DNA of 64,000 nt, taken from the NCBI GenBank assembly GCA_036172245.1, contig JAYWIR010000002.1, positions 558,001 to 622,000 on the forward strand, read 5' to 3'. The position numbers and the translations under genes are program-made. Each line of letters opens with the position of its first letter. Positions within the stretch are counted from its first letter, which is position 1. Under the pieces are notes generated by a model. It did no database searches and was not told the origin of the DNA. It saw only the letters and a program-made list of their open reading frames with translations. Origin of the DNA: Raillietiella orientalis (lineage: Eukaryota). This document shows positions 3,229 through 60,989 of the stretch, piece after piece.

Positions 3229-3422
3229 GGGTACCAAGGGGAGGGGAAACCGTGGCTTTTCAGTACTCTCGAGAGCGAGTCCTGGGAAGGGAAACGAGGT
3301 CGAATTCAGGCGGGCCGCCAGCGACGGCGGCAGCGCGCGGGCGCCGACCCTTTCACCGCCCCCTTCCTACCCTTCTTTTTTTTTCCCAAGACCCACCTCC
3401 CGCTTCCCCCAGCCCGAGGAGG
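3229..3422 (+). repeat. Diverged ~195-bp direct repeat, copy B (partner 1347-1543)
   Basis: Same ordered anchors as copy A, offset about 1.88 kb. Confidence 0.85.
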
Positions 3423-10096: not shown

Positions 10097-10109
10097 GTTA
10101 GGAAGAAGC
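10097..10109. repeat. 13-bp direct repeat GTTAGGAAGAAGC, left copy (putative target-site duplication)
   Basis: Identical to 10407-10419. Coincides with the point where myosin similarity ends. Confidence 0.9.
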
Positions 10110-10409
10110 CTTGTCAAGCTGCTCTTTGTTTTGCTCGGAATGTCTGCGTTCGTCTTCCAGCTGCAGGAGCAGCTCCTTGATGCGTTTGTCCTGCTTACGG
10201 AAGTTTTTGGAGTGCATCTGTTTCTCTTTGGTCTCTTCTTCCAGCTGCTCCTCCAGCTGGGATATCTTGCTCTCTAGCGCCGCTATCGTATTCTTTGTTT
10301 TCGTACGGAAGCTGTTCTCTAACTCGCTCAGCTTGCTCTTGAGCTCCTTGTTCTGGCGCTCTAAGAGCATCCTCTGGCTCTCCAGCTTCTGAGAAGCTGA
10401 GCGCTCGTT
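10107..10409 (-). pseudogene. zip: Non-muscle myosin II heavy chain (zipper / MYH9-MYH10 family) coiled-coil tail fragment, 101 uninterrupted codons, probably a captured or retro-inserted piece
   Basis: Translation NERSASQKLESQRMLLERQNKELKSKLSELENSFRTKTKNTIAALESKISQLEEQLEEETKEKQMHSKNFRKQDKRIKELLLQLEDERRHSEQNKEQLDKA contains the family hallmarks LERQNKELK, IAALExKIxxLEEQL and EDERRH. It lies within ORF 10098..10466. Flanking residues (EPLLP / SS*) are not myosin-like, there is no GT donor at the 3' end, and I saw no other myosin exons in the window. Confidence 0.9.
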
Positions 10410-10419
10410 AGGAAGAAGC
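10407..10419. repeat. 13-bp direct repeat GTTAGGAAGAAGC, right copy (putative target-site duplication)
   Basis: Identical to 10097-10109, offset 310 bp. Coincides with the start of myosin similarity on the minus strand. Confidence 0.9.
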
Positions 10420-13400
10420 GGTTCCTGCGAAGGCTGGAGTCTGGCAGCTTCCGATCGCAGAGCCACTCACTTCCCGGAACAGGATCCGTTTGCCCCAAGG
10501 CAATCGGAAGACGAGGAAGTGTGTCGCTTTGGAAATGGGAAAAAGGCCCCGGTGGCGAGTTCGGACTAGGAGGCGAACGGCTAGTCGTCACCGATCCGTC
10601 TGCACGGCAGAAAATCCTCCGTGGTCCACTGCGCCGAAGATCCTTCCCACGATTTCCTCCCTCGCACTTTTCCGAGAGCTCCCAAAGATACAGCAAGAAC
10701 CCAGCACGCCGCTCACGCGAGGAAAACCCGCGGTCCCTTTGGCCGGCAAGAAGCGACGATGCCCTTCGAAACCCCAGGTCCTCCTTCGCAGCATTTCCGG
10801 ACAGCGCGCCTTCCGTCCAATCAAAGAGGGAACGAGTTCTCTTTAATGGACCGCGGGCCGAAGTTTCCCCGAAAGATTGCATTATCAGCTTCGCCCTCTG
10901 AGCCCGTTCCGGCGCTGCTGGAGCTGATGGCTTTGGATCAGAACTCACGCAGGTCAAGATTGATCGATTCGTAATGAGATCAAAGTTCTGGGGGTGCCCC
11001 CGTGCGACAGACACATGATGGAAGCGCCTTCGGAAAAGAAGCGGGCGGCAACCGGCTCTCATCGCTTCCACCCTGAGGCAGCTATTTCTATTCGCAAGTA
11101 CCGCGGTCATCCGGACCGCTTTCCGGGAACGCCCGTCCCCTGAGTGCACCGACCATGGAGAGTATGTAGAGAGGTGCCTTGCGACACGGACCGAGGTTTT
11201 TCGAAAAAAAGATCGTGGACCTATTCCTCCTTCTTTCATGATGCGAACGCACACGGTGCATGCATGTGGACTGCAACACTAACCACCAGTGTTGCAAATA
11301 TTTTTTTCTTTCATTTCTTTACATCTTTTGCTTTTCGTCTGTCCTCTGCAGCCGGGTCCGGAAGGAATTTCAACAGAGCAGCGCCCTTTCTTGCAGGAAA
11401 GTTCCGTGCACCTTAAAACGGTATTCCCGGCTTCTGTTATCCTCCCAGGCCTCTCCAGCACTGGCGATAAAATTTTGTGTGTCCTGATCTGGTCCATCGC
11501 ACACGCAAATGTTCTGCGGTTCTCCTCTGCTACATTGTCATCCACAGGCAGAACAGCAGACTATAACAGTATGGACTTTTCTTTCGAATTGTTCTTCGTA
11601 CTTCAGCCTTTGAGCCTCTGCTGGTCTCCTACGACAACCGGACAAAGGGTGGTGACACGCTTCGCTTTGGTTCCGAGCTCTTCAAAGCATCTCTGTGGGT
11701 TTCTCATTGGAATCCGTCAAACGACAGCGCGTGTTTCTGTTGCGTTTCCAGGAAGACGGACCCGCGCTGATGCGACATGGATCTCTTTTCTTCTTTCTTT
11801 CTTCTCTTTGGAGAAGATGAACCACCGACCTTTTTTTTTGTTGTTTGTCGCTACTCCCGATTCTGCGAGCATCTCCTGGTCGGTCAATGCGGACTGCGAT
11901 TCCGCACAGGGATGCCACATTTTTTTTTTTTTTTTTATGTCGTAGCGATGCGGTCGGTTGCCACGGACCGAAGTGCACAAAAGTCAGGAGTGATGCCGGC
12001 CGCCGAATCCATCATGAAATGCCTGGCATCATGCCGAAGGAAAAAAATTGCTCCTGTCGTCTGTCTTCGAAAACCTGCGCTGTGCTCGTGTTCTCAGTGG
12101 CTCTGGGTACCGTGACTGAAACGTACGTTCTCGACCGTTCCGAGGGTGCTGATGGGGTGCGCTTGTCGACACGCCCAGCGAATACACCTTGCACTGAGGA
12201 GCATCTTGCTGTCTCCCATGACCTCTGCTCTGATCTGAAGATCTTCCTTACCTTCCACTATCTGATTTTTTTTCCAGGCAGGTCGTCCTTTTTTTTCCTA
12301 CTTCTGTTTTTTCTTTTGCATGCTTCCAAGCAGCTGGATCACAGCAACTGAAACGGAATGCCATTCGAAGATGAAAAGAAAGCTTTTGTCTTTTAATGGC
12401 TATGCCAGCCCTCTGAACCACCAGAAGGCTGCTCCAATACCAACAGGGGGCGAGAACGGAATCCCGTTTCCATCTCATCAGCGACTTTGCAAATGCAGGC
12501 TGATCAAGAAGTCGGCTCATGACAGCCAGAAAGCATAGAAGGCCAAATAAAAAGAGGGACTGATACAAGATGGTCTAGCTCTTTCCCACTGGAGCAATGG
12601 AAGAAGAGGTGCCTCCATTTCGAGGTAAGCTTGCGACTGCTTGGCTTCTTTGCCACTTCTTCCACCACTGCTGACATCCTCGTTCCAAAACTCTTGACGG
12701 CTCCTCCTTGCTCCAGGCTTCCCTTGTGAGCATCCCGATTGGGAGAGTCCCACAAGAGAGGGTGGTTTTGCTTCCGGGAAGCTTTCCTGTGGAGCTCGTA
12801 AGGAAAAGATCTGACGTTGCTAGAGCGACCTATAAACTTGATCGAATCTCGTTCCGGTGAGTCACTGCATCTCGTAATCAGTCTTTTTTTTTTTTTTTTT
12901 TTACGAGATTTTGTCGGTTTTCACATCTGTGCGCGCTCGCTCGCGCGCGTGTCTCTTCACCTGTCCGAGGTGTCAGTGCAAGAACGCGCCGCGTCTGGAG
13001 GCAGCCAGACGCTGCTGCCTGGCATTCGGCCTGCACGAAACACATCGAAATGGCAGAAATCATAACACTGTTCTCCCGCTGCGGTCGCGGCTCTCTTCCT
13101 TCCTCCGAAATCGTCAACAAGCCACCGGCTGCAGTGCCCTCATCCCGTCGTTGGTAATCAGCCGGTTTCCAAGGGCCTCAGCAGCCAGTGCGCCTCTTTC
13201 CGAGCTGAAAATAATGCGCGTTCATTAATCGTTCCGATTAACTGATGAGCGCACCATTAGTGTTGATCGTTGGCCGTGTCGCCCAAACGAAGAATGGACC
13301 ATCGGATCTCTACGGTATCTCCGCCAGCATTGCCGCCTCTGAGCCATCGCTCTCTTCCGAGAAAATGCCCCTTCAAGGCGCATACGCATTCACGCTCGCG

Positions 13401-17429: not shown

Positions 17430-18688
17430 AGCAACCTCACCGCCGGACGCGCGAGCGCGCGCGGTCCGCCGCCGCAATCCGTTTCGGTCGACGGTGCGAC
17501 TCGAGGGAACTTCGGCCTAAGGGTGCGAGACCTCCCCCCACCCCTAAATGAAAAAAAGGAGCGGCTCGCTCGCCCCTCTCGCTCCTTGACCCTTCTTCCT
17601 CCGAAGTCCTTCGGGATGGGGTGGGAAGGGGGGAAGGGATGGGAGAAACGGAGAGAAGAACCCGCTGCGCGACCTCATCGACGGAACAGCGGCGGTCGCG
17701 GGAGTGGAGGTGCGCCTTTTGGCCCGAGGTGTCTGCTAGCCGCGCGCGCGCTCGGGCCGACGTTTCCCCTTCCTCCCAGCAGCAGGACCGAAAACCCAAC
17801 AGCAACATGATGCGTTCTCGAAAGCACGGTGGAGGCAAACACGTGTGCTCCCTCGGAAGTGGCACGGAGGAGGCCACGAGGCACTATTCCCACCGTCCCC
17901 CGCTGCCTCCGTCGACCCTTCGACTTCTCGGAGAGAATCAAAGGCGAGCGGCAACAACAGACCCAGAGATGAGGCTGAGGATTACCGTTTTTTTTTTTTT
18001 TGTTTTGTTTTTATTTTTCCCCCTGTTTGTTTCCCTTCCTTCGGCTCACGAAAACTTTCGAGCGGTGGTCTCGCGGCTTCGGCACGAATCTCCGATCAGT
18101 GATTTCTCGATCGCGACGCGGAAATCACGAAGACGCTTTCCTCGGTACTGGTCGGGTTTCCTCCCCGCAGCAGCTGCCGTCTTTCGCAACGCCGGCTGCT
18201 CAGGATTCTCCGGAGAGAGCCGCGGAAGGAACGCTCCGGTCGGGCTGGGACGACTCCCAACCTCTCTTTCTCCTCTCCGTTCCCCAGTGGCGTCGGGAGA
18301 GAGGGGAACCTTTGCTGCCGACGTCGGTTGCGCACAGCCCGAGAGGACGACAGGGCGGCGGAAGCGCGACGTGAGAAATCCCCCCCAGCCCCGGCCTGTG
18401 AGGACACCGAAACGTCCGCGGCGGAAATTAATCTGCAAGGGCAGCGGTTGGTCACCTTCAGGTCGACGGGATGTTCGGAAACCGCGCGGTCTCGCTCGCA
18501 GCGCGTTGATCTTGATGCCGCGATGATGCGCTCTCGACTCTCTTTCAATCGGGACGTTCTCGAGGTGTTTGGAAAAAGGGCAGCAGGATGAGAAAACCAC
18601 TCGTGACCACGTGGATAGGGAGTGTGGAAATCCACTTCGGGTCAGCCGATAGCGTGGTCTCATGCTTTATACATCAAGAGGAAGCAAA

Positions 18689-18864
18689 ATGGAGTCTCCA
18701 CAGCACACCTCCATTACTCTACTGCTGTTTCCACATCCACTCCTGCATAAAATTGTGTTTTGGCGTCTGCACCAACTGGCTTTTTTATTTGTCCAATCAC
18801 ATCAGTCCCTCAGCGTGTCGATGCTGTAAGTGGGAATTCATTTATCTGAGATGCAGACAGGAGC
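18689..18864 (+). repeat. ~176-bp direct duplication, copy 1 (partner 20329-20505)
   Basis: 85-nt core 18713-18797 is identical to 20353-20437. Flanks align with scattered substitutions. Offset 1640 bp. Confidence 0.95.
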
Positions 18865-20328
18865 GCTGAAGAATGAAACCGAATTTTTTTCGCTCGAACG
18901 TCTTGAGTCTTCTTATCCGAGTGTTAGACCTCAAGCTATTCAAAGAATGGCAATGCAGCCGCGCTGCTTTATAAAAAGTGGACTTCTTTCCCCTCCCTCC
19001 CTCTCTCCCGTGGATTGGACTGCTGTACGAGAAATTTCAGAGCCACAAACCAAAGGCATTTCGAAAAAGCTTTCCTAATCTCCAATTTTCGCTTCATAGA
19101 TAGATGCTCCCTGCAACTCCGACGCAGCTATGCTCCTGGCAAGACTGGCTTTAAAAAAAGCAGAGCCCGTATGGAGCACCGCAGCGCAAGACGCCTCGCT
19201 GCAAAAAAAAAAACGAAAAACGCCTTGGAGGCTTCTTCTCCGTCGAAATATATTGAGATGACAGAATTTTCACACCACCGTTTGGGCTTCGCTTGACGAT
19301 GAAGCACGACCCACGGATGCAATCCCCGCTTCTTCCCGAAGCTTCCCGAACTCGTGCCTTCAATGGTTAGCACGCAGATGGAAAACAAGGCTTTTTAAGC
19401 ATTTGTTTTTAGCGGTCGTGGGTTTTCCATCCCCATCTCAATCGCGGAATTTTTGAAAACTTCAGTCATGCTTCAGTGATATTCTGAACTTTGGACCACT
19501 CGTCTTTACTACGCGCCGCAATCATTTTTCAGATGCCATGCGCAGAAGAGTGGCAGAGTCTGAAGTCTTTGGAATCGGAGTTTATCCGCTCATTTGTCTC
19601 TTGTCCGTCAATCTTGTTTATCTTTCACTTGTTAGGTGAGACGGAATTCCCCTTGGCTACCGGCTGGGCTTCAAAAGAAGGATTTGAAAAAGGACGTCGT
19701 GGTCCCATAATTTTCGCCGTTCTGCGGAACTCGAAAGTTTGCGCCGCAGCTCTTCGATTAGTTGGGAAATGTGATCTCAGCCAAGCAGAGACAGAGTTGC
19801 ATCAGAATGAAAGACTTACGTAAGCGCACAAAATGACCAGCAGATCTCATTCGTAGGTGCCTCGTCGGTACAAACACAGACCCCCACGGTTGCACTCCAG
19901 TTTTGCTGACATGCGCCGGATTCCACGAAAACGAAACGTAGCTTTCCAAATCCTGCGGACGGATGTGGGAAACATTTAGTGTCCTTGCAAAATTCGAGAA
20001 GTCATCACACACGAAGATCCAGGGCAACCATGCAAACACGGCAAGAGATATTTCCTGCTTGCAAAAAAACGTCCATGTACCGAACAGCAAATCGATCACA
20101 CTCGAATAAGATTCGTGTTACCGTTTTCACGAAGTCAGTGAAGAAAAAAGCGTTCTTGAATGCCTTTTTCCGCTGAAATTTTTTCTCGTCTCCAGCATCC
20201 AGAAGCGACAGAAGTTCTTGCATCTGAAGGATGTGCTTTGATTCCGATTTAATCGCGTGTCTGCATTGCAAAATCCTAATCGATATATAATCGCGCAGCC
20301 TTTCTGGATAGACAGTAATAGCAGCAAT

Positions 20329-20505
20329 ATGGAGTCTCCACAGCACACTTCTATTACTCTACTGCTGTTTCCACATCCACTCCTGCATAAAATTGTGTTT
20401 TGGCGTCTGCACCAACTGGCTTTTTTATTTGTCCAATTACGCCAGTCCCTCAGCATGTCGATGCTGTAAGTGAAAATTAATGCATCTAAGATGCAGACAG
20501 GGAGC
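20329..20505 (+). repeat. ~176-bp direct duplication, copy 2 (partner 18689-18864)
   Basis: 85-nt identical core with copy 1. Confidence 0.95.
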
Positions 20506-23500
20506 AACACTTTTACTCGCCCGTCGTTAGGAACGGAAAATGCGCTCCTAGTGAATGTGAAAGGATGATAGCAGTCCCTATTCGTTTTGGTCAGCGATCG
20601 CCACGAGGACATCCAACGTGCATGGAATGAGTGCATGCAAAGATATCGTTGCTTCCCCAATTGCAAGCGTTTCCTCCCTTCGAGACGCGTCGTGGACTTT
20701 CGAGCCGTCGATGACGTGTTCCTCTTTCCAGATGATGCTTTCATTGTGACATGGCTTCAGCTGAGCTGAAAACGTCAGGTCCCTGAGACTGACCGACGCA
20801 GCAAAAGTCCATATCAGTTGGGTCACTGTGATCGCACCCCTTGCTGACTACCAGTCATCTTGTTAAGTTTCATTCAGCTTCCCAGCCTATGGTCGAATAA
20901 AAATCCGTTCAGCGATCTTCGCGTCCCCGTTTGAGCCTTCGCTCGCACTAAGACGAATCTCGTCCTCAACCAGCTGCAAAATGATTCCCATCTGGTCATT
21001 TCAGCTTCCTGATTCCCAATGCTAATGATTTTCGTTCAGAGACTACGGCAAAGATATTTGGAATTTATTTCTAGAATGAGCCCTTTGTTTAGACATCGAT
21101 TGATTTGGACCGCGACGACCACTTCTCTGGAACCAAAAAAAAAAAAAAAGCAGCAGACCCCAGTGGGCATCGGTGCAAATGGATCTGTTATTTGAGGCGT
21201 CTGCTCAAGCCACTTGCGTGAAAGCGAAACCTCGGCAGGCGCGGTGGCTGCACCGTTTGAGGCGGATCTTTGCCGATCGAAATCCACTCCGCGGACCATG
21301 GACCATGGTTCCTGAGGGCTGGAATTTTCAGTCAGGAGTTTGCACCCCTTAAATCAAAAACGGTTTGCTCCTGCATCTCTGACCATCCCTCCGTTCTTGC
21401 ACGAAAGGGAAGAGTCTGTATGAATCTTAAGTGGGAGAAGAATTACCGATTTTCTATCCTGATCGACGCAGTGGCCACGACAACCGGATCCCACTGCATT
21501 CCGTCCGAATCCTTTTTCGAACGCTGCTGCTGATTTCAGCAGGAGAATTGGAAGGCCACATCTCCCACGTGGGATTCTTACAAAATCTTCCCTTTCGTGC
21601 AAGAACGGAGGGGTGCCCATGAGGTGCCTACATCATGGATCACAACGGAAAAGTTTCGCTCAATTATTGCTAAGCTGCGTTACACCTGAGAATCTGAATC
21701 TTGATCCTGGGATTTACCTGACCTTGCTCGTCACTTTTCCATCTCTCCGGTGCAGGTGGAAGCAGCCAAAATTAATGATGGATTAATGATCCCTCATAAC
21801 TCCAAGGATGAGCTCGTCCAAAAGAGGTTGTCAGATGAAACGGACTTTACTGATTCTGCTCGCAGACGCATTGCCATCTGATGTTTTAGCTCAGGAGTCC
21901 GCATCAGGGTAGCCTCTTAGCGAAACGCTCCAGACTCCCAGTCTTCTCTTTGGAGATCGTCACTGGGACGACAGTGCGTTCGAAACGTTTCGTCTTGTAG
22001 CACGTGTAGAGGAACTTCTCTAGGGAGAATTCCCAGAGCGAAACCCACCCACACAGGGATAGGACTGGGATTTCTAACGCCAAGATTCCACGAGCCCTTG
22101 CTGCTTCCCCCACGAGCAGGAGAGGACCAGGGACACTGGATCAGAATAGCGGAAGAACCGATCTTCATTAGACTTGCTCCGAAAACAACTGGCTCCTGCA
22201 TCGAATCCTGGGGGGCCGGTGGGGCATTCACGTGTTTCATCCGAGAGCTAAAAACCTGCATGCTGGAAGTTTTTGCTGTACCCCGCTCGTATCGTTCCGA
22301 TGAAGGCATCCTGATGACCGTATGAGCCCTTTTTCCTTCCTGGAACTAGCCATAAGGAGTCCATTCACGTGAACCTGGATCCTTACTGCATTGCCGTGCG
22401 AGGAGAGTTTCCCCCGCAGTCCCCTTCGGGATCCATAGCAAGTCCCGGGTTCACAGTTTCCCTTTCAACTCAGCCTTTCAGCTCAACCTTAGTCCTCGCG
22501 TTTCCACGCACTTTTCAGCGTGGTCTCCCTGCAGAAGGATAGAAGCGTCGATTCGTCTTGGAAGCGCGTTCCTGGGCCTGACAGGAGGAAGAGAGAGAGG
22601 AAAACGTACTGATTCTGGATCTACGGAAAGGGGGATCGGCAATACTTCGGATTCCTACGCCGCGCTTGCTGATCATTGGGAATGAGACCACTTGGCAGAG
22701 TCATCATTGATGTCTGTGGCTGTCTTCGAGGATTCCCATTTTCGAGGTGCAGCTGAGGAAATGGATGAAAGACAGAAACGTGGCAATGAGCGCTCCTGAG
22801 TTTAACGCTTAATCTCAAGGGTTGTTGTCGACTGGAAACTCAAAGTTGAGCGAAAGTGAAGCGTCGATGCATTCTTGGCGGCTGCCTGGACGCACAGACG
22901 AAAACTCCCCGTCTCAGGCCGTCCTAGATCTAAAAGAGAAAGCACATTCCTCGTGGTGAAGATGGAGGAAAGCAAAGAAAGAAAAAGGGAGCACCAGTAA
23001 AAGGGAACGGAAAGAAGCAGTCATCTGCATCAGCCAGGATTTCCTGGAGTGGAACTCGTCCTTCAGGAGAACGACGAAGGAAGAAGTAGTGTCCACCGAG
23101 GGCAATAGCCCTTTGAAGGAAGCTGAGAGCCTCCATATCTCATGGAGTTCACTATGACAGGCACTGGCACTCTCTCTTGATCTCATCTTCTTCACCCTTT
23201 TGGTTCCCACGCCGTCCTGACGGCTTCTCCCTCGAGGGTTTCCGTTCTGACCCACACCGGTAGCGCGCGGCAGTCTGTGAGTGTGCGCGCATCTCCCGCC
23301 TATTCCTCTGAGTCCAATCAAAGGAACGGTGCCTGCATGGGATGAAATAGGGAAAGTGTCCGAGTGGGGCTGGAGATGGAAATTGGAGAGGCTCTCAGTT
23401 CCGCAGGCAGCATCAAGTTGGAACCGAATGCCTCACGTGGCAGCATCCGAGAAGAACAGGATACCGAGTTGCTCATTCACTCTGGCATCTTTCATCATCT

Positions 23501-46589: not shown

Positions 46590-49337
46590 GTCGGTTTACC
46601 AGCGGAGAGGAAACTTCCATTAGATCACAGCCTCGAGTTGGCAGCAAAATGGAGAGGACAGTCAGGCGGTAAAGACGATGGCAAATGCTCTGCACGCCCC
46701 GGCGCATCACTCGTGAAAACACAAGCATGAAGATCATTTGTGGGAAGGGAGAAGGGAACTAAAGGAGCAACGAGAAGGCTCACTGCTCAGCACCAAGCAC
46801 GGCTTGCTAAAACCGAAAAGGTGGAGGTGAAGCAAGTCAGAGAGAGAGAGCAGCATGAGTGTATCATCATTTTCGAGTTCAGAGATACGAGTGATCGATC
46901 GATTCCTCCCATGAGGAAACAACGGAGCCACGAAGGATTGCTCGCAATGATGGCCACCATGCTGGCTCCAGCGGCTCCATTAGCGCTTTTAGGATGTCGG
47001 AAGAGGGAAGGAAAATCTTTCTTTTTTTTTTTTTTGTCTTGAGTAACCAACGTGAAAAAGGCCCCAGTGCCACCCTGTGTGTGGCATCGAGTTGATGAAC
47101 CTATGAGGAGCGCCTGATGGGTTGGGGAGATGACAAAACCGAAAACCGGAACCCTTCGTACGGTTTGCATCAATCGCATTTACGGTCTCTCCACTTGCGA
47201 AAGTTTCGCAAGTGGAGGTGAGCGCAAACGGCAACTTTCCCTGATCTCCGTTAGAAGACTTCACCAAGTGCGAATGCCTTTCTTTCAGGGTCAAGACTGA
47301 AAAAAGAGCCAACCCCTCGGATTTAGATACAGTGGACAGCGTCCCTGCACGCGATATGCATGTTTGTTTTGCCCCAATCCACGGTAAAGTCCGTAGGAGT
47401 CCTGAACTTTCCTGAAGACTGCCCGCCTGAAGCTGGAACCCGTGGTCCTGGGCGTACCTGATGAAAGGGGAGCTTTGCACATGCTATTGCGAGCTTAGGA
47501 GGGGATGGAAGAGAAAGAGGAAGAAGAGAGAAGTTCAGTGGAAACTGGCAAAATGTCATCGCTAGGCGATCTCTCTTGAGGCGATGGTGACCAGCTGACC
47601 AGCTTCTCCGACAACAGCTTTTCGAAATTTTCCCTAGACGAACCTTCCTACTCCTACCTCTGTACCCCCTTTCGCAATTTGTAATCGTGATCTTCCTGGC
47701 TTTGCACCGCATCGATGGCTCCGTGGTCCCCCTGTCGATGACTGGAAGTGCAAATCGGAAATGTGCGGGTTCCGATTGGAGCGAATGCCTTCCTGCTCCC
47801 TAAAGCTCGAACAGGAATCCTTCCCGAAGAACGCCTTGTGAAGCTGCGGTGATCGGTACGGTGTAGCCTTCCAGGAAGAAGGCATCCACAGAAAGAATCG
47901 GTTTCCGAACGCGAGAGGAACGAGACTCAGCGCTCGAAGTGAGCTGCAAAGTTCTCGAGACTATGGGCCCATAAGGTGACAGCACGAAATTCAATGCATC
48001 CTTCAAAGTAAATGCCGTCGGAAGCAGCATAGCACCTTCGCAGCATACGAACACGGCATGCTTCGAAAAGATTGGATGCCCGCGTTGCTGTATTTCTCAT
48101 TCGACGTGTGCGCTTTTTCTTCACCAAGGGTGTTCGCTGCTGTATCCTGCCTAGGGTCCGCCGTTGCCGTGGTTTCTCCCTTCGCTCACCCGCGCGGCGC
48201 AATTGAACCGCCGAGCAACGGATGCCATGGAGGATTTCCGTTCTCCAGATGCTGCTGTGTCGTCTCCAGCGAACGCAGATTGAATCAGCCTCACGAGGCG
48301 CTGCTAGGCACAGTACACAGATCAAAGAGAGAGAGACCTTTCAGCTGAGGAAGTGGCTTTAACAGACGCAGCGGAAAAGCTCATTCCGCATTAATCTGGA
48401 AGAAGGAAAGAGACGGAAGAAGAAGAAAGAGAAGAGGAAAGAAAAAAAGTGTCACGGAAGCGGGAGGAAAGGATCCGGACAAAGATCTGAACTTCTGAGG
48501 ACGGTGCGATATCACGGTCAACGCCGAATCTTTCAACTTCTTCCGGAGTTGACGAATGCCCGGGCTCGCGTAGACAGCGGCCGCTCTGGATCCGGAAGAT
48601 AGCTCCTCGGGGACCCACCACCAATTTCCAAGTGCCTGTTATCTGGATTTCCGAGAACCAATGATAGGGCGGCGGGAGAAAAGGAGCAGAAAAAAAAAAA
48701 AGAAACGAACCTCTTTGTTGGGGGATTGCAAAACCGCGCCTGCACAGAAAGTCAGCGATGCCATTGTTTCACACGAGGACCCTCCAGGACGCCATCTCCT
48801 TTCTTGGTCTTTCCGGCATCCTCCCTCGCGAGGCGGACCACTTTTTTTTTGTTTGGAAGCTCGTGACGATGGTGAGGGGTCAAAGCCCCAGAACGCGCTT
48901 CCAGAGGAAGCGGCAGATTCCTTCCTTCATCTCGCTGCAGCTGCCCGGGTGAGCGCTGCAAGTCCGTGCGGTCCAGGCGTAACACAGGATGGCGGCGGGC
49001 GACTCCACCAAAGGAGCTTCGGGAGAGGCCGTCCTCTTCTCTCTACCCCAGAGGGATCGGGACAGAGGAGGAGAAGACGTCTGTCTGCCTTCCCAGGTCC
49101 ATCCAAAGTTCCCGTCTCCCAGATCAAACCTCCAGGAGGTATCCTCCTGGAGACCAAAGAGAAGCTCAGTGCCGCATCAATCGACTTCGCTGATTGGCAG
49201 CTGTCGGCGTGAGGAATCGAGCGCCAAAGGCAGCCGCAAGACCACCTTGAGGAAAGGCGCGCAGGAAAGGCGAAGTGACATTGGCAGAAGCTTCGCAGCT
49301 AAGCGAGACCCGGCCACTCCCACACAGTCTGGTGTTC

Positions 49338-49412
49338 GTGTGTGACGTGCTGATGGCTATCCTTTAGGCATGGAAGTCGTGCCTAAAGGATAGCCATCAG
49401 CACGTTACACAC
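49338..49412 (+). repeat. 33-bp-stem inverted repeat (long hairpin)
   Basis: Arms 49338-49370 and 49380-49412. The 26-bp core ACGTGCTGATGGCTATCCTTTAGGCA / TGCCTAAAGGATAGCCATCAGCACGT is perfect. The single arm mismatch is G:T. Confidence 0.95.
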
Positions 49413-52400
49413 CCACAACCATCGAAGCGGCGACCTCAGGGAAACTACTGCTGCGAGAGCACGCAGCATCAGTTTCGTCGCTTCTTAACAGCAAATTCGC
49501 TCTTCTCTCCCCACTTTTTTTTCTTCTGTTTTTCTGAGGACGGTTGGTCTGTTTCCTCGACCGCCAGAGGTACCACAGTCCCTCAGGTCGTCGGGTAACA
49601 CGTTGTCTGAGCAGATGACGACTAGATCCTCCCTATTCGGAGAACGACGAAAAGTGGGTGCCTTATGCGGGCTCTCGTTGAGACAGGTCGCATCCGATTC
49701 AGGATATCGCTTTTTGTACAGGATTCCTGTTTTCTCATTGCTGGTATCTGCTGATGCTCTTCCTCAGGAGACCTTCCGCAATGGCAGCAGCAAGTAAGCA
49801 CCGAAAGCAGCAACTTTGCTTGCTGTGACAGCAGTAAAACAGCGCAGCAGCTGTGGCAGTCGTACCAACAGCAGGCAATAGGGCTAATCGCACTAGCTAC
49901 GACAATCGTCTGGATGTTTGAGGCGGGACTTCCAACAATCAGTGCCATCGTTCCCATGGCCTCTGTTAGAAGCAAGAGGAGGACCAGGAGCAAAGCTAGT
50001 AGGCAGGTGCAACCAGAACTCCCTCCCGATGCTTGCTCCCACTCTTTCCGTCCCCCCTCTCTCTTTTATTTTAGGTGATCCCTTCCTTCTTTCCTGAGCA
50101 CGAGTCTCGGGAAGAGAAGGACGGAAAACTGCCTCGAGGGATGTGTGGGCTACGAGGCCAGGAGGCAGGCTCTGGAGAAGCGCCGACACCTGGGGCTGAA
50201 TGGGCCGTAGCAAAGTGTCCTGCCCTCGGTCGACCTTCCAGCTCCCACGCTTCTCAGTCGGGAGTACACCGGGTTAATCTGAAGAAACCGTCTCACTAGG
50301 GGTCGGAGCTCACGACTGGAGCTACCATCACCCGTTCCCCTCTTGCTGGATTTTCAGTGCGCGCGTCAGACCACGGAAGAGGTGGACAAGAGTCTTGTCG
50401 GAAAGTGTTCGGCCTGGAGGAAGCCAGCGAAAACTCGCCGTTCCTCTGCGAGGACGGAGAAAGGGAAGGGATTCATCTCCGTCAAGGGCCTGCTGCCGCC
50501 CGGTCTCAGGAGGGGGCTGCCGGTGGGGGATGATACGGGAGAGAAGACACCATCCGCATCTTGCCCTCCCTTCCCCTCTTTCCGTCTTCGCCCGTCTGGC
50601 GGGAGCGCGCGCGGACGTTCGAGCGGATTACGCGCGCCCGAGTGGATCGACACGTTAAAAGCCCGCTAATCAGATCGCGTTTCACGCGCAGGTGACTCGG
50701 GCGGCGCGAGGGCGGGAGAGGAAAAGGGAGGGCAGGGGAGGAAGGCAAGGAGATTGCGCAAGGGAACGTTTCCGTTACCAGGCGACGGGAATCGCAGCGG
50801 ACCCGCGGAAGAACGCGCGAGCGTGAAGCTCGCGGACGCCGATTGCGACACGCCCCCGTTGCGACACACCAGCTGGCGCTCGTCGCCCGGACGCTCCCGA
50901 CAGGGACGTTCCGCGATCCATCCAGGAGAGCTCTGCCTCCCCGGAGGAGGAGCATCACCCACAGCGCTCGCGATGGTCCGCTCCAGACGATGCCTCACCT
51001 TCTCGGGAGCTCCCAGGCGATCAGCTTCTTCCCGTCCCCGGGAAAAAACCTGCTTTTCTTTTACATTTACTTCCCTCCCCCTCCCAGCCACTTCCGCTCT
51101 CCCTGGGCTCACGGGGTGTGCTGTGGTCTTTACGTAAAGGGACATCGCTCCAGACTACATCTCGATGTCATGGGATCCTGGAGAGCCAGGAGGCAGTGGA
51201 AGGAAGAGGAGAAAGTCTTCCCACCCTCTCCCACCAGCAAACAGCCTTCAGGAGGGAAGGAAAGGAAGAGCTCTGGAAGGGCATGAGGAGGACTTCTCCT
51301 CTGCCCTCTGCACGCAGGAGAGTTCTCCCCTTGGACCACTGCTGGGCGAGCGCTGCTGACCCAAGAAGACGCAGCCACTTGGACCCTGCCCGAGTACTAC
51401 GAGGGGCGAAGAGCGCAGAGGAGTCCCTTTCACAGAGGTATGGGACGGAGTGCAGTGGGAGGAATAGGGGACAGACGCTCTTTTTCTGCACCCTCGTGCT
51501 CCCCTCTAGGGAACCGGGCTGAGAGGGCGAAGGCGAAGCGCCCTCAGAGCGTCCTTCCCGTCGGCGGTCAAGGCCTAGAGAGACGGGTTCGGCGGGACCT
51601 TCCTGCTGGTCTGCAGCGCTGGGAAGGTCGGCCCCGAGGGCACCTTCCGGATCAATGCCGACAGCGCCTACTACCGATGGTCCGGACAGCAGCACATTGA
51701 CCGCGTGGGCGCTATGCGCACGCACCACACGCGAGCCGCCTAGGTCTTCCGCGCCTGCTCGGACACCTTTCTGGCGGTCGCCAGCGACTCCATGCTGTAC
51801 TGCCTCGACGGAAGAACCGGGGACTTCCGGGAGCAACCATGATTGCTCACCAGAGCCGCCAGCGACTAGAAACACTTCGTGCCGGGGACGGGTCACCGCG
51901 TGGGTCACTTCATGGTGGTGGCCAATGAGTAGGAAAAGTAAGGGAAGAAGGGACAAAGAGGGATGCTGTTCTTCCCAGCAAATGGGGACGGCGGCGGGGA
52001 CAAGTGCCCTCCCCCACCGAGAAGTCGTGGGATACGCTAAGGGGAGGGATCGAGACTCACGAGGAACGAAGGTCTCCTCCTCCAACGGGAGATCTCAGAG
52101 GAGAGACCTGGACAGGATCGAAAACGGCGCTATCTGGCAGGCGGGAAAACGGGAGTGACTGCCAATAGGGAGGAGGGTGAAGGGAACAGAAAGCAGGCAT
52201 GCAGGAATCGCCGCTCTTCCCACCCCCATTGACTTTCCCGGAAGGAAAAGGTTAACGTAGGGAAAAGAGCCAGAGAACTCTCTGGTCCTCAAGGGGAAGT
52301 CGGATGGCTTCCTCATCTGCTCCCCTCCCTCTCCGTTGGCCGGTTCAGCCGCTTAACCCTGTTCACCCATTAGCACTTGCCAGCCGTCTGTCGTTTACGT

Positions 52401-59598: not shown

Positions 59599-59690
59599 GT
59601 GACCAAGGAAACTGAAACAGCGGAAGGCCAGCTGCCTAAGAAGCGTGGTTGCTGCTGCTGGAGTCCGGAAGGACGGAAAGGCCTCCGGCG
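59599..59690 (+). repeat. Short diverged direct repeat, copy A (partner 60548-60611)
   Basis: Shares GTGACCAAG, a (TGC)n run, an exact 17-mer GCTGGAGTCCGGAAGGA (59657-59673) and GGAAAGGCCT. Confidence 0.8.
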
Positions 59691-60547
59691 AAGGATGTCT
59701 TGAGCACGGGCAGTATCTTAGCCGAGGAAGGCGACTGAGGCGCGATTACTGCTAGTTGAAAACTTTACGCTCCCATGGCAGGCGCGCCGAAGATTCCCTC
59801 CCTTTGCCAGTTCCGTCCCGATCCCATGAAGAAACCCCGACCATCCTTCGGGAGCAGTCTTCACCCTTTCAGAGAGGAGGAAGAACGAGGAGCAGGTGGG
59901 CACTGGCGGTGACCAGGTCATTCCTTCGACCCGGTCACGAGAAGGCAAGTGATGAGCGGACGCCTCCTTCTGGACACGCTCTCCGGTAAAGCAAGCGCTC
60001 GAGGAACCCTTCCCTAGGCGCCCTTGCTCCCCATGAATGCAGAAAGGCAGCATCCCAATTGGTCATCCGCGGTCTTCTGTGAGGGGTCGCCTCCCTGTCT
60101 AACCCATCTGCCCCCCATCTGGCGTCCGGACCCTAGGCACTCTGGGATAAAATGACCCGGTCCAGAGAGTGGGAGGGGCCTTTGGCCCGCAAGCACTGCC
60201 TTCTGGTCTCATTTGGAGCTGCACGAACGCAGATCCACTCTTTCAGCTTCCTCCATCCGCCGAGCCACTCCTGCTGCTGGCCCGTTGTGAGCATCCCGCT
60301 CGCGCCTTTGGAGGAAATCGGGCCCGCTAGTGGTGGGCAACCCTCAAGCCGGAAGGGAGGACAGCAGAGACCAACCAATTACCCCCTTTCCCCCTCTCTT
60401 GAGCAGAAGCCGGGTGCGTTCCGGGAATTTCGGTGTGACTCGGAGGGGGGAGGGGGGGAACGATGCTCAGGGAAGCGCCGTCACTCCTTCACTGGCCTTC
60501 GTTCTCAGAGGAGCGGAGCTCCATCGGGGCAACCCTGCGCCACCGAG

Positions 60548-60611
60548 GTGACCAAGAAACCTGGCTGCTGCTGCTGCTGCGGCTGGAGTCCGGAAGGAAA
60601 GGCCTTTGGCG
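60548..60611 (+). repeat. Short diverged direct repeat, copy B (partner 59599-59690)
   Basis: Exact 17-mer at 60582-60598, offset 925 bp. Confidence 0.8.
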
Positions 60612-60989
60612 GTGCTTCTGAAGGAGCGGAAAAGGATCCGGGGAACAGCAAGCTTTCGATTCTGTGCCGGTCGCTCAGCGTCCGCACTGTCTGCGGTTCG
60701 GCGGCGGCAGCCTCGGGAGACCGCGGGCCCATTCTGTGTGCTTCCATTTCGAGGTGATTTTGCAACGAGGGCTGCTGATGTGAAAGGATGGGAGGAGGAG
60801 GAGAAGGGGAGGACAGGGCGGCGGCGGCGATCGGACGGATCAAAAAAAAAAAAAAAAGGAAAAGAGAAAAAGAAAAGGAAAAGGCGAGACACGAGCTCAA
60901 AAATTCCGGATTTTTGTCTTCGTGCACTTGGACCATATTCGGTGACCTTAGTCATACGCGCGCGCGCGTTACATTTCAGCAGGCACGTC

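Follow-up and report, generated by a model that had tools for sequence, protein, structure and literature searches.

The window analysed here, by which we mean the whole stretch of 64,000 nucleotides, carries a short and sharply bounded piece of animal-type coding sequence. It comes from within the coding sequence of a non-muscle-type myosin II heavy chain and comprises 99 codons on the minus strand (10110–10406), corresponding to approximately residues 1775–1873 of solved human myosin-10. These 297 bp are enclosed by two exact copies of the 13-mer GTTAGGAAGAAGC, the left one at 10097–10109 and the right one at 10407–10419 (plus-strand coordinates), which we read as a target-site duplication (TSD). 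In the sense of the myosin, the left copy lies 3′ of the insert and supplies a TAA stop at 10098–10100, up to which the myosin frame is open. The parent message also contains the first three bases of the right copy (10407–10409; on the minus strand AAC, an Asn codon). Together these elements form an open frame of 122 codons (10098–10466, minus strand), composed of 16 flank codons, the upstream repeat copy, the 99 myosin codons, Ala-Ser-Ser, and the TAA from the downstream repeat copy. The original prediction of an exact 13-bp duplication around 297 bp of myosin II tail coding sequence, with a frame that is still open and is not followed by a splice donor, was thus borne out.

The minus-strand ORF matches the Pfam family Myosin_tail_1 over its residues 18–121 with an E-value of 2e-34 (119 bits, for a cutoff of 38), and only positions 926–1029 of the 1081 in the profile are covered. 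Of the solved structures, the tails of myosin-10, myosin-11, and myosin-9 (human-type, at about 1773–1876) come closest, with E-values of 2e-25 to 2e-23. Striated-muscle myosins score far lower (1e-6 and worse), and the fragment is therefore of the non-muscle/smooth-muscle type. Among all ORFs of at least 70 aa in the window, the myosin frame has the highest contrast between GC3 and GC2; its codons are GC3-rich (74%) and, by eye, CpG-rich, and the GC content of the insert is 51% vs. 57% for its flanks. This codon composition fits the composition of the window, which is not proof of a common genome. No functional myosin II gene accompanies the fragment, as the tail is represented by this part alone and neither a Myosin_head nor any other domain was found in the ORFs scanned (239 of the 262 long ones and 149 short ones). 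The insert is almost certainly a non-functional pseudogene fragment. Its 122-codon frame is probably incidental, and expression is unsupported by RNA: the comparison comprised a single metatranscriptome run (X1, share 0.05), which gave no contig over the flanks and is in that respect uninformative on expression or habitat.

How much weight can the repeat itself bear? Across the 64 kb, GTTAGGAAGAAGC is matched only twice, even with one mismatch allowed, compared with a mean of 0.12 in shuffled sequences. Direct-repeat pairs of at least 13 bp within 6 kb occur 1–7 times in each of 20 shuffles, so a 13-bp repeat alone is not rare here, and the other 12–17-bp pairs of the window are about as numerous as in the shuffles, except for one linked to a U4-like segment (described below). 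What is not due to chance is that both copies adjoin the ends of the foreign homology to the base.

That homology is delimited by a metatranscriptome contig of 356 nt from run X1, which aligns without gaps to 10110–10409 with 8 differences over 300 positions (292/300, 97.3%) and is unlike the window beyond both ends of this interval. Since the contig continues as other sequence on both sides, a parent message exists of which the window has only an internal piece. By hand translation (minus strand), its loose 30 letters upstream give ten residues fitting those that relatives carry before “NERS...” (compare P0175 and P0180), while in the 11 loose letters downstream the myosin frame goes on after “...LDK.” Past the 3′ end of the insert, the contig is still coding. 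This transcript provides both the separate parent that had been foreseen and the predicted arrest of similarity at the two repeats. It also defines the junctions. The contig differs directly before 10110, so the myosin sequence includes no base of the left repeat copy (10097–10109): in the sense of the myosin, the duplication begins GCTTCT after ...GGAACC, and the contig letters past this point share none of it. On the other side, the Asn codon at 10407–10409 is common to the right repeat copy and the parent message. Microhomology thus amounts to 3 nt at the 10407 junction (the mRNA-5′ side) and 0 nt at the other, and no bases were added. About 3 nt had been expected at both junctions; the parent message matches the duplicated bases for the Asn codon AAC, but the Ala codon GCT of the other repeat copy is not in the contig and is target sequence, not myosin.

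No inverted repeat was found at the ends of the insert, and there is no A8 or T8 run between 4729 and 11831, hence no poly(A) at the insert. The fragment is cut short on both sides: the message's 5′ end is missing, and so is its polyadenylated 3′ end. Nor was any reverse transcriptase, endonuclease, or other transposon domain found in the scanned ORFs, namely 239 of the 262 stop-to-stop ORFs of at least 110 aa and 149 of the 605 ORFs of 50–109 aa. The short ORFs chosen were those poorest in Arg, Pro, Ser, Gly, Ala, Cys, and Trp, with one antisense frame inside the insert dropped; domain pieces in the other 23 long and 456 short ORFs, or of less than 50 codons, could be missed. Within this scope, the absence of poly(A), terminal inverted repeats, and transposon sequence agrees with what had been read from the letters at the outset. 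The sole other Pfam signal in the window, a match to 7tm_7 (20.4 bits, for a cutoff of 26.6), is sub-threshold, lies in a leucine-rich junk frame, and was rejected.

The surroundings are otherwise bare, the insert being the only coding-like piece in 64 kb. Its flanks are single-copy within the window, and the flank ORF at 10364–11278 has no relatives among 5.8 billion protein clusters. GC content averages about 56% (44–68% depending on the stretch), and the observed/expected ratio of CpG is 0.90; this lack of CpG depletion argues against a vertebrate, and the window is not mammalian. The window contains no tRNA, no Rfam family at gathering score, and no telomere repeats of the arthropod type or the plant/apicomplexan type. 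A8/T8 positions number 167 vs. 4.9 expected, with 19 runs of 11–19 nt, and polypurine/polypyrimidine tracts are also strongly enriched in this otherwise GC-rich sequence. The A/T runs were considered as retroposon tails and rejected: a TSD-like match is found at only 2 of the 19 runs of at least 11 nt, vs. 2.75% of control positions, which gives no indication of poly(A) retroposons in the vicinity.

In the protein collection, no close relative of the fragment was found, the best database protein being 71% identical over 100 residues. Identities are 66–71% to arthropod non-muscle myosins and about 60–64% to mollusc and fish proteins; overall, arthropod, mollusc, and vertebrate non-muscle myosins are 62–71% identical to it. 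The best match in the scan of metagenome contigs reaches 70%. A 32-mer from the insert is absent from the genome contigs and viral contigs searched, and the 64-kb window has no second copy of the myosin segment. In a maximum-likelihood tree of 38 rows, the fragment has a long branch (0.69) and joins none of the insect, mollusc, spider, and vertebrate groups, a placement without resolution whose bootstrap is not settled. These comparisons suggest that the parent is a bilaterian-type gene from a lineage poorly covered in databases.

Was the template RNA or DNA? In four of seven related metagenome loci (L003–L006), the match breaks off after fragment residue 61 and resumes 100–500 bp further on at residue 62, and in L007 it seems to end near residues 61/62. 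The segment is uninterrupted in L001 and L002, which may be transcripts. Among 13 related database proteins, six run from “...LEEQLE” into non-myosin letters and four end at residue 61, as gene calls on intron-cut exons would. The window fragment is continuous across both places. Because the relatives have an intron at 61|62 and the fragment has none, a spliced message is the likelier template. The derivation from spliced mRNA put forward in the original prediction, which had pointed to an intron of vertebrate MYH9 near “ETK|,” the same place as 61|62, is accordingly retained as likely; it draws on the introns of relatives 58–70% identical to the fragment, not on the parent's own gene.

The insertion is recent, as had been proposed: the repeats are identical at 13/13 positions, the frame is intact, and five of the seven differences listed between the fragment and the X1 contig are synonymous. 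Under equal probabilities for all changes, the latter has P = 0.004; counting transitions alone raises this to 0.058. With this share of synonymous changes, most of the 2.7% divergence looks like that between two working genes, the true parent and the gene of the X1 organism, and not like decay of the insert.

Our preferred reading, to which we give a probability of roughly 0.55, is that the insert is a target-primed or break-captured reverse transcript of a myosin II mRNA, cut short at both ends, with a LINE-like enzyme acting in trans. At a staggered break in non-coding DNA, a cDNA copy of some 297–300 nt of spliced mRNA for an animal non-muscle-type myosin II would have been inserted. A 13-bp duplication implies that the two strands were broken 13 nt apart and that neither single-stranded end was lost; filling in two such 13-nt ends would yield the exact repeat. 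The geometry would fit target-primed reverse transcription (TPRT) by the endonuclease and reverse transcriptase of a non-LTR (LINE-like) element working in trans. The plus strand would be nicked after ...GAAGAAGC and before the GGTTCC of the empty site, and its 3′ end, unpaired with the message (0 nt shared), would serve as primer for the cDNA, the plus strand of the insert, with its start at 10110. Synthesis would halt after about 300 nt, at 10406–10409. The end of the cDNA would then anneal through 3 nt (GTT/AAC) to the opposite 3′ overhang, produced by a second nick 13 bp away, and both gaps would be filled. What we infer, as opposed to observe, is that RNA was the intermediate, that a LINE-like enzyme acted, and in which order and on which strands the nicks were made.

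In the non-LTR model as outlined in PMC2666801, the first nick primes reverse transcription and a downstream cut in the second strand gives the duplication; in zebrafish, by the same account, roughly half of the genomic ZfL2-2 LINE copies have 5′ microhomology. In our insert, the sole microhomology (3 nt) falls at the junction expected for attachment of the cDNA end (mRNA-5′ side), not at the priming junction. The capture can therefore not be called “microhomology-primed,” as it first was. Several observations speak against TPRT: the nick site is not A/T-rich, target and message show no complementarity at the priming end, the scanned ORFs yielded no transposon protein domain, and the A/T runs of the window do not look like retroposon tails.

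This kind of event is already known in mammals. What had been suggested to be a distinct route of gene-fragment capture has published counterparts in tailless retropseudogenes and templated sequence insertions, as presented in PMC5322556 and PMC5110952, and the core idea of a reverse-transcribed internal fragment was largely right. The tailless retropseudogenes of therian mammals, in the description of Noll et al. (2015; PMC5322556), are TSD-flanked, 3′-truncated copies of cellular RNAs that lack oligo(A); they are explained by TPRT started inside the RNA, and their sources are mRNAs and small RNAs. The insert has in common with them the absence of oligo(A), the 3′ truncation, and a discernible duplication. 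It differs in its target: theirs, as given there, are A-rich TT/WAAAAWW sites that can pair with the RNA where the copy has its 3′ end, whereas here the site is ...GAAGC/GGTTCC, with 0 nt of complementarity at that end, in a genome that is not mammalian (CpG 0.90).

Templated sequence insertions, or TSIPs (Onozawa and Aplan, 2016; PMC5110952), are likewise short pieces from distant transcripts inserted at seemingly random sites. As defined in that work, class 1 has a duplication of at least 5 bp, while class 2 has no poly(A) and shows microhomology. The insert has a duplication like class 1, but like class 2 it lacks poly(A), a polyadenylation signal, and a TTTT/A site. It does not sit within class 2 either, whose members are without TSD and carry microhomology, microdeletion, or added bases, since the 13-bp duplication is present and microhomology is limited to 3 + 0 nt. 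The short pseudogenes collected with TSDscan (Terai et al., 2010; PMC2831318) resemble it as mRNA-derived retrocopies of at most 300 bp with TSDs, but as reported they are defined by a poly-A tract, and hence by the 3′ end of the message, whereas our insert is internal. The 5′-truncated LINE insertions with microhomology (Zingler et al., 2005, as cited in PMC2666801) have a few bases common to the cDNA end and the target at the 5′ junction, and a TSD that varies up to about 20 bp; in contrast, the insert contains no LINE sequence, its template was a cellular message, and its 3′ end is also missing. Of the features of a classic LINE processed pseudogene, it shows the TSD (exact, 13 bp on both sides) and has no 3′ poly(A) beside the downstream copy. 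Terminal inverted repeats and a family-typical TSD, the features of a cut-and-paste transposon, are absent as well, and the whole insert is myosin coding. We know of no DNA transposon superfamily that a 13-bp TSD would fit.

Other routes to the same arrangement have to be weighed. A chance staggered break, with nicks 13 bp apart, may have been patched by end joining with a cDNA or an RNA-templated fragment and its overhangs filled, independently of any LINE, in a manner comparable to class 2 templated sequence insertions. Such repair would sit well with the absence of poly(A) and of an A-rich target, with the 3-nt microhomology at one junction and the blunt join at the other, and with the lack of LINE domains among the scanned ORFs of the window; capture of reverse-transcribed spliced mRNA at breaks is, moreover, on record (PMC4516963; PMC5110952). 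However, the class 2 insertions described in PMC5110952 are without target-site duplication, ordinary end joining usually trims overhangs, and a clean 13-nt stagger at both ends is what an element endonuclease produces, following the model in PMC2666801. We consider this explanation rather unlikely. A copying event at the DNA level is more doubtful still: a replication or repair polymerase would have jumped to DNA carrying the myosin segment, whether foreign, from an older retrocopy, or from a parent gene without introns, and after some 300 nt would have resumed on its first template 13 bp behind its exit point. An insert with a short flanking duplication and 3 nt of microhomology at the return junction is the footprint that we would expect of a double template switch, and uninterrupted versions of the segment do exist (L001 and L002, although these are perhaps transcripts). 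Yet the genomic copies of relatives are interrupted within the segment, the first switch would have had 0 nt of microhomology, and the window holds no second copy of the segment, which together make this origin improbable.

The remaining explanations concern whether the insert is real and whether it works. A chimeric molecule or a misassembly could have placed animal cDNA or DNA in the contig of another organism; the junctions are those of the assembly sequence, and the insert stands out as the one coding-like piece of the 64 kb and by the step in GC from 51% to 57%. A ligation or assembly chimera would not, however, rejoin the locus it had left at a point 13 bp further upstream and so duplicate those bases exactly, and an overlap of 13 nt is presumably too short to mislead the usual assemblers, so that we hold an artefact to be very improbable. 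It is hardly credible that the 122-codon frame is a working exon of a gene that recruited a coiled-coil segment, even though the frame is open, the minus strand carries a CAG 8 nt upstream of the repeat, and the zebrafish TRIM-like protein P0018, with its myosin-tail segment, shows that such recruitment can occur. A stop comes three codons past the myosin part, inside the repeat, and no donor site follows; the flanks have no RNA contig in the one run X1, the ORF that extends into the flank is without relatives, and no other domain was detected in the scanned ORFs of the window.

Compared with these alternatives, the reverse transcript of a myosin II mRNA with both ends missing remains our preferred reading, and it leads to the matter of the recipient. 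As it stands, the locus is one neutral insertion of a known general kind: a clean and young RNA-copied gene fragment with neither end of the message, its TSD intact and its junctions defined to the base. Inserts like this would show a reverse transcriptase and a staggered break working without poly(A) or primer pairing, outside the mammals in which the class was defined, and would provide raw material for the exon shuffling of coiled-coil segments. The more interesting question is whether the recipient genome is that of the animal itself or of another organism. The parent is clearly animal-type, and its transcript comes from a metatranscriptome alone; no feature of the window links it to an animal, and with its GC of about 56% and CpG ratio of 0.90 it has no recognizable gene or transposon protein besides the myosin piece. 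The window could conceivably come from a non-animal eukaryote (a GC-rich parasite, symbiont, or predator) in which a host or prey myosin mRNA was reverse transcribed and fixed, a scenario we think doubtful. If it were true, the insert would be direct evidence of RNA-mediated transfer from an animal to a microbe or protist, caught fresh.

A few further observations deserve mention. Two isoforms of an uncharacterized Danio rerio protein (P0018 and P0023) combine RING/B-box (TRIM-type) domains with a myosin-tail segment covering 98% of the query at 54% identity, as if another gene had recruited a piece of myosin II tail. Within the window, the 5′ part of a U4 snRNA-like sequence lies at 59696–59776 on the plus strand (45.8 bits, for a gathering score of 46; E 4e-7 for the window). 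Its 3′ half, where the Sm site of U4 is located, is missing. Some 880 bp in this region (59650–60613) are flanked by an imperfect direct repeat of about 42 nt, whose core is the exact 17-mer GCTGGAGTCCGGAAGGA at 59657 and 60582; the U4-like part opens about 5 nt beyond the left repeat copy. A clean duplication was looked for in segment 59650–60613 and none was demonstrable; the segment may be a second and older RNA-derived insert, chimeric or tailless. The only sizeable dispersed repeat of the window is a direct repeat of 179 nt, 93% identical, at 18683–18861 and 20323–20501, 1640 bp apart. Two stretches of some 200 nt (1347–1543 and 3229–3422), 1.9 kb from each other in the GC-rich left end of the window, share 75% identity. 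Finally, there are inverted repeats at 21384–21615 and 49333–49417: one is MITE-like, with 55-nt arms (87% complementary) around 122 nt, and in the other, arms of 38 nt and a loop of 9 nt form a near-perfect hairpin.
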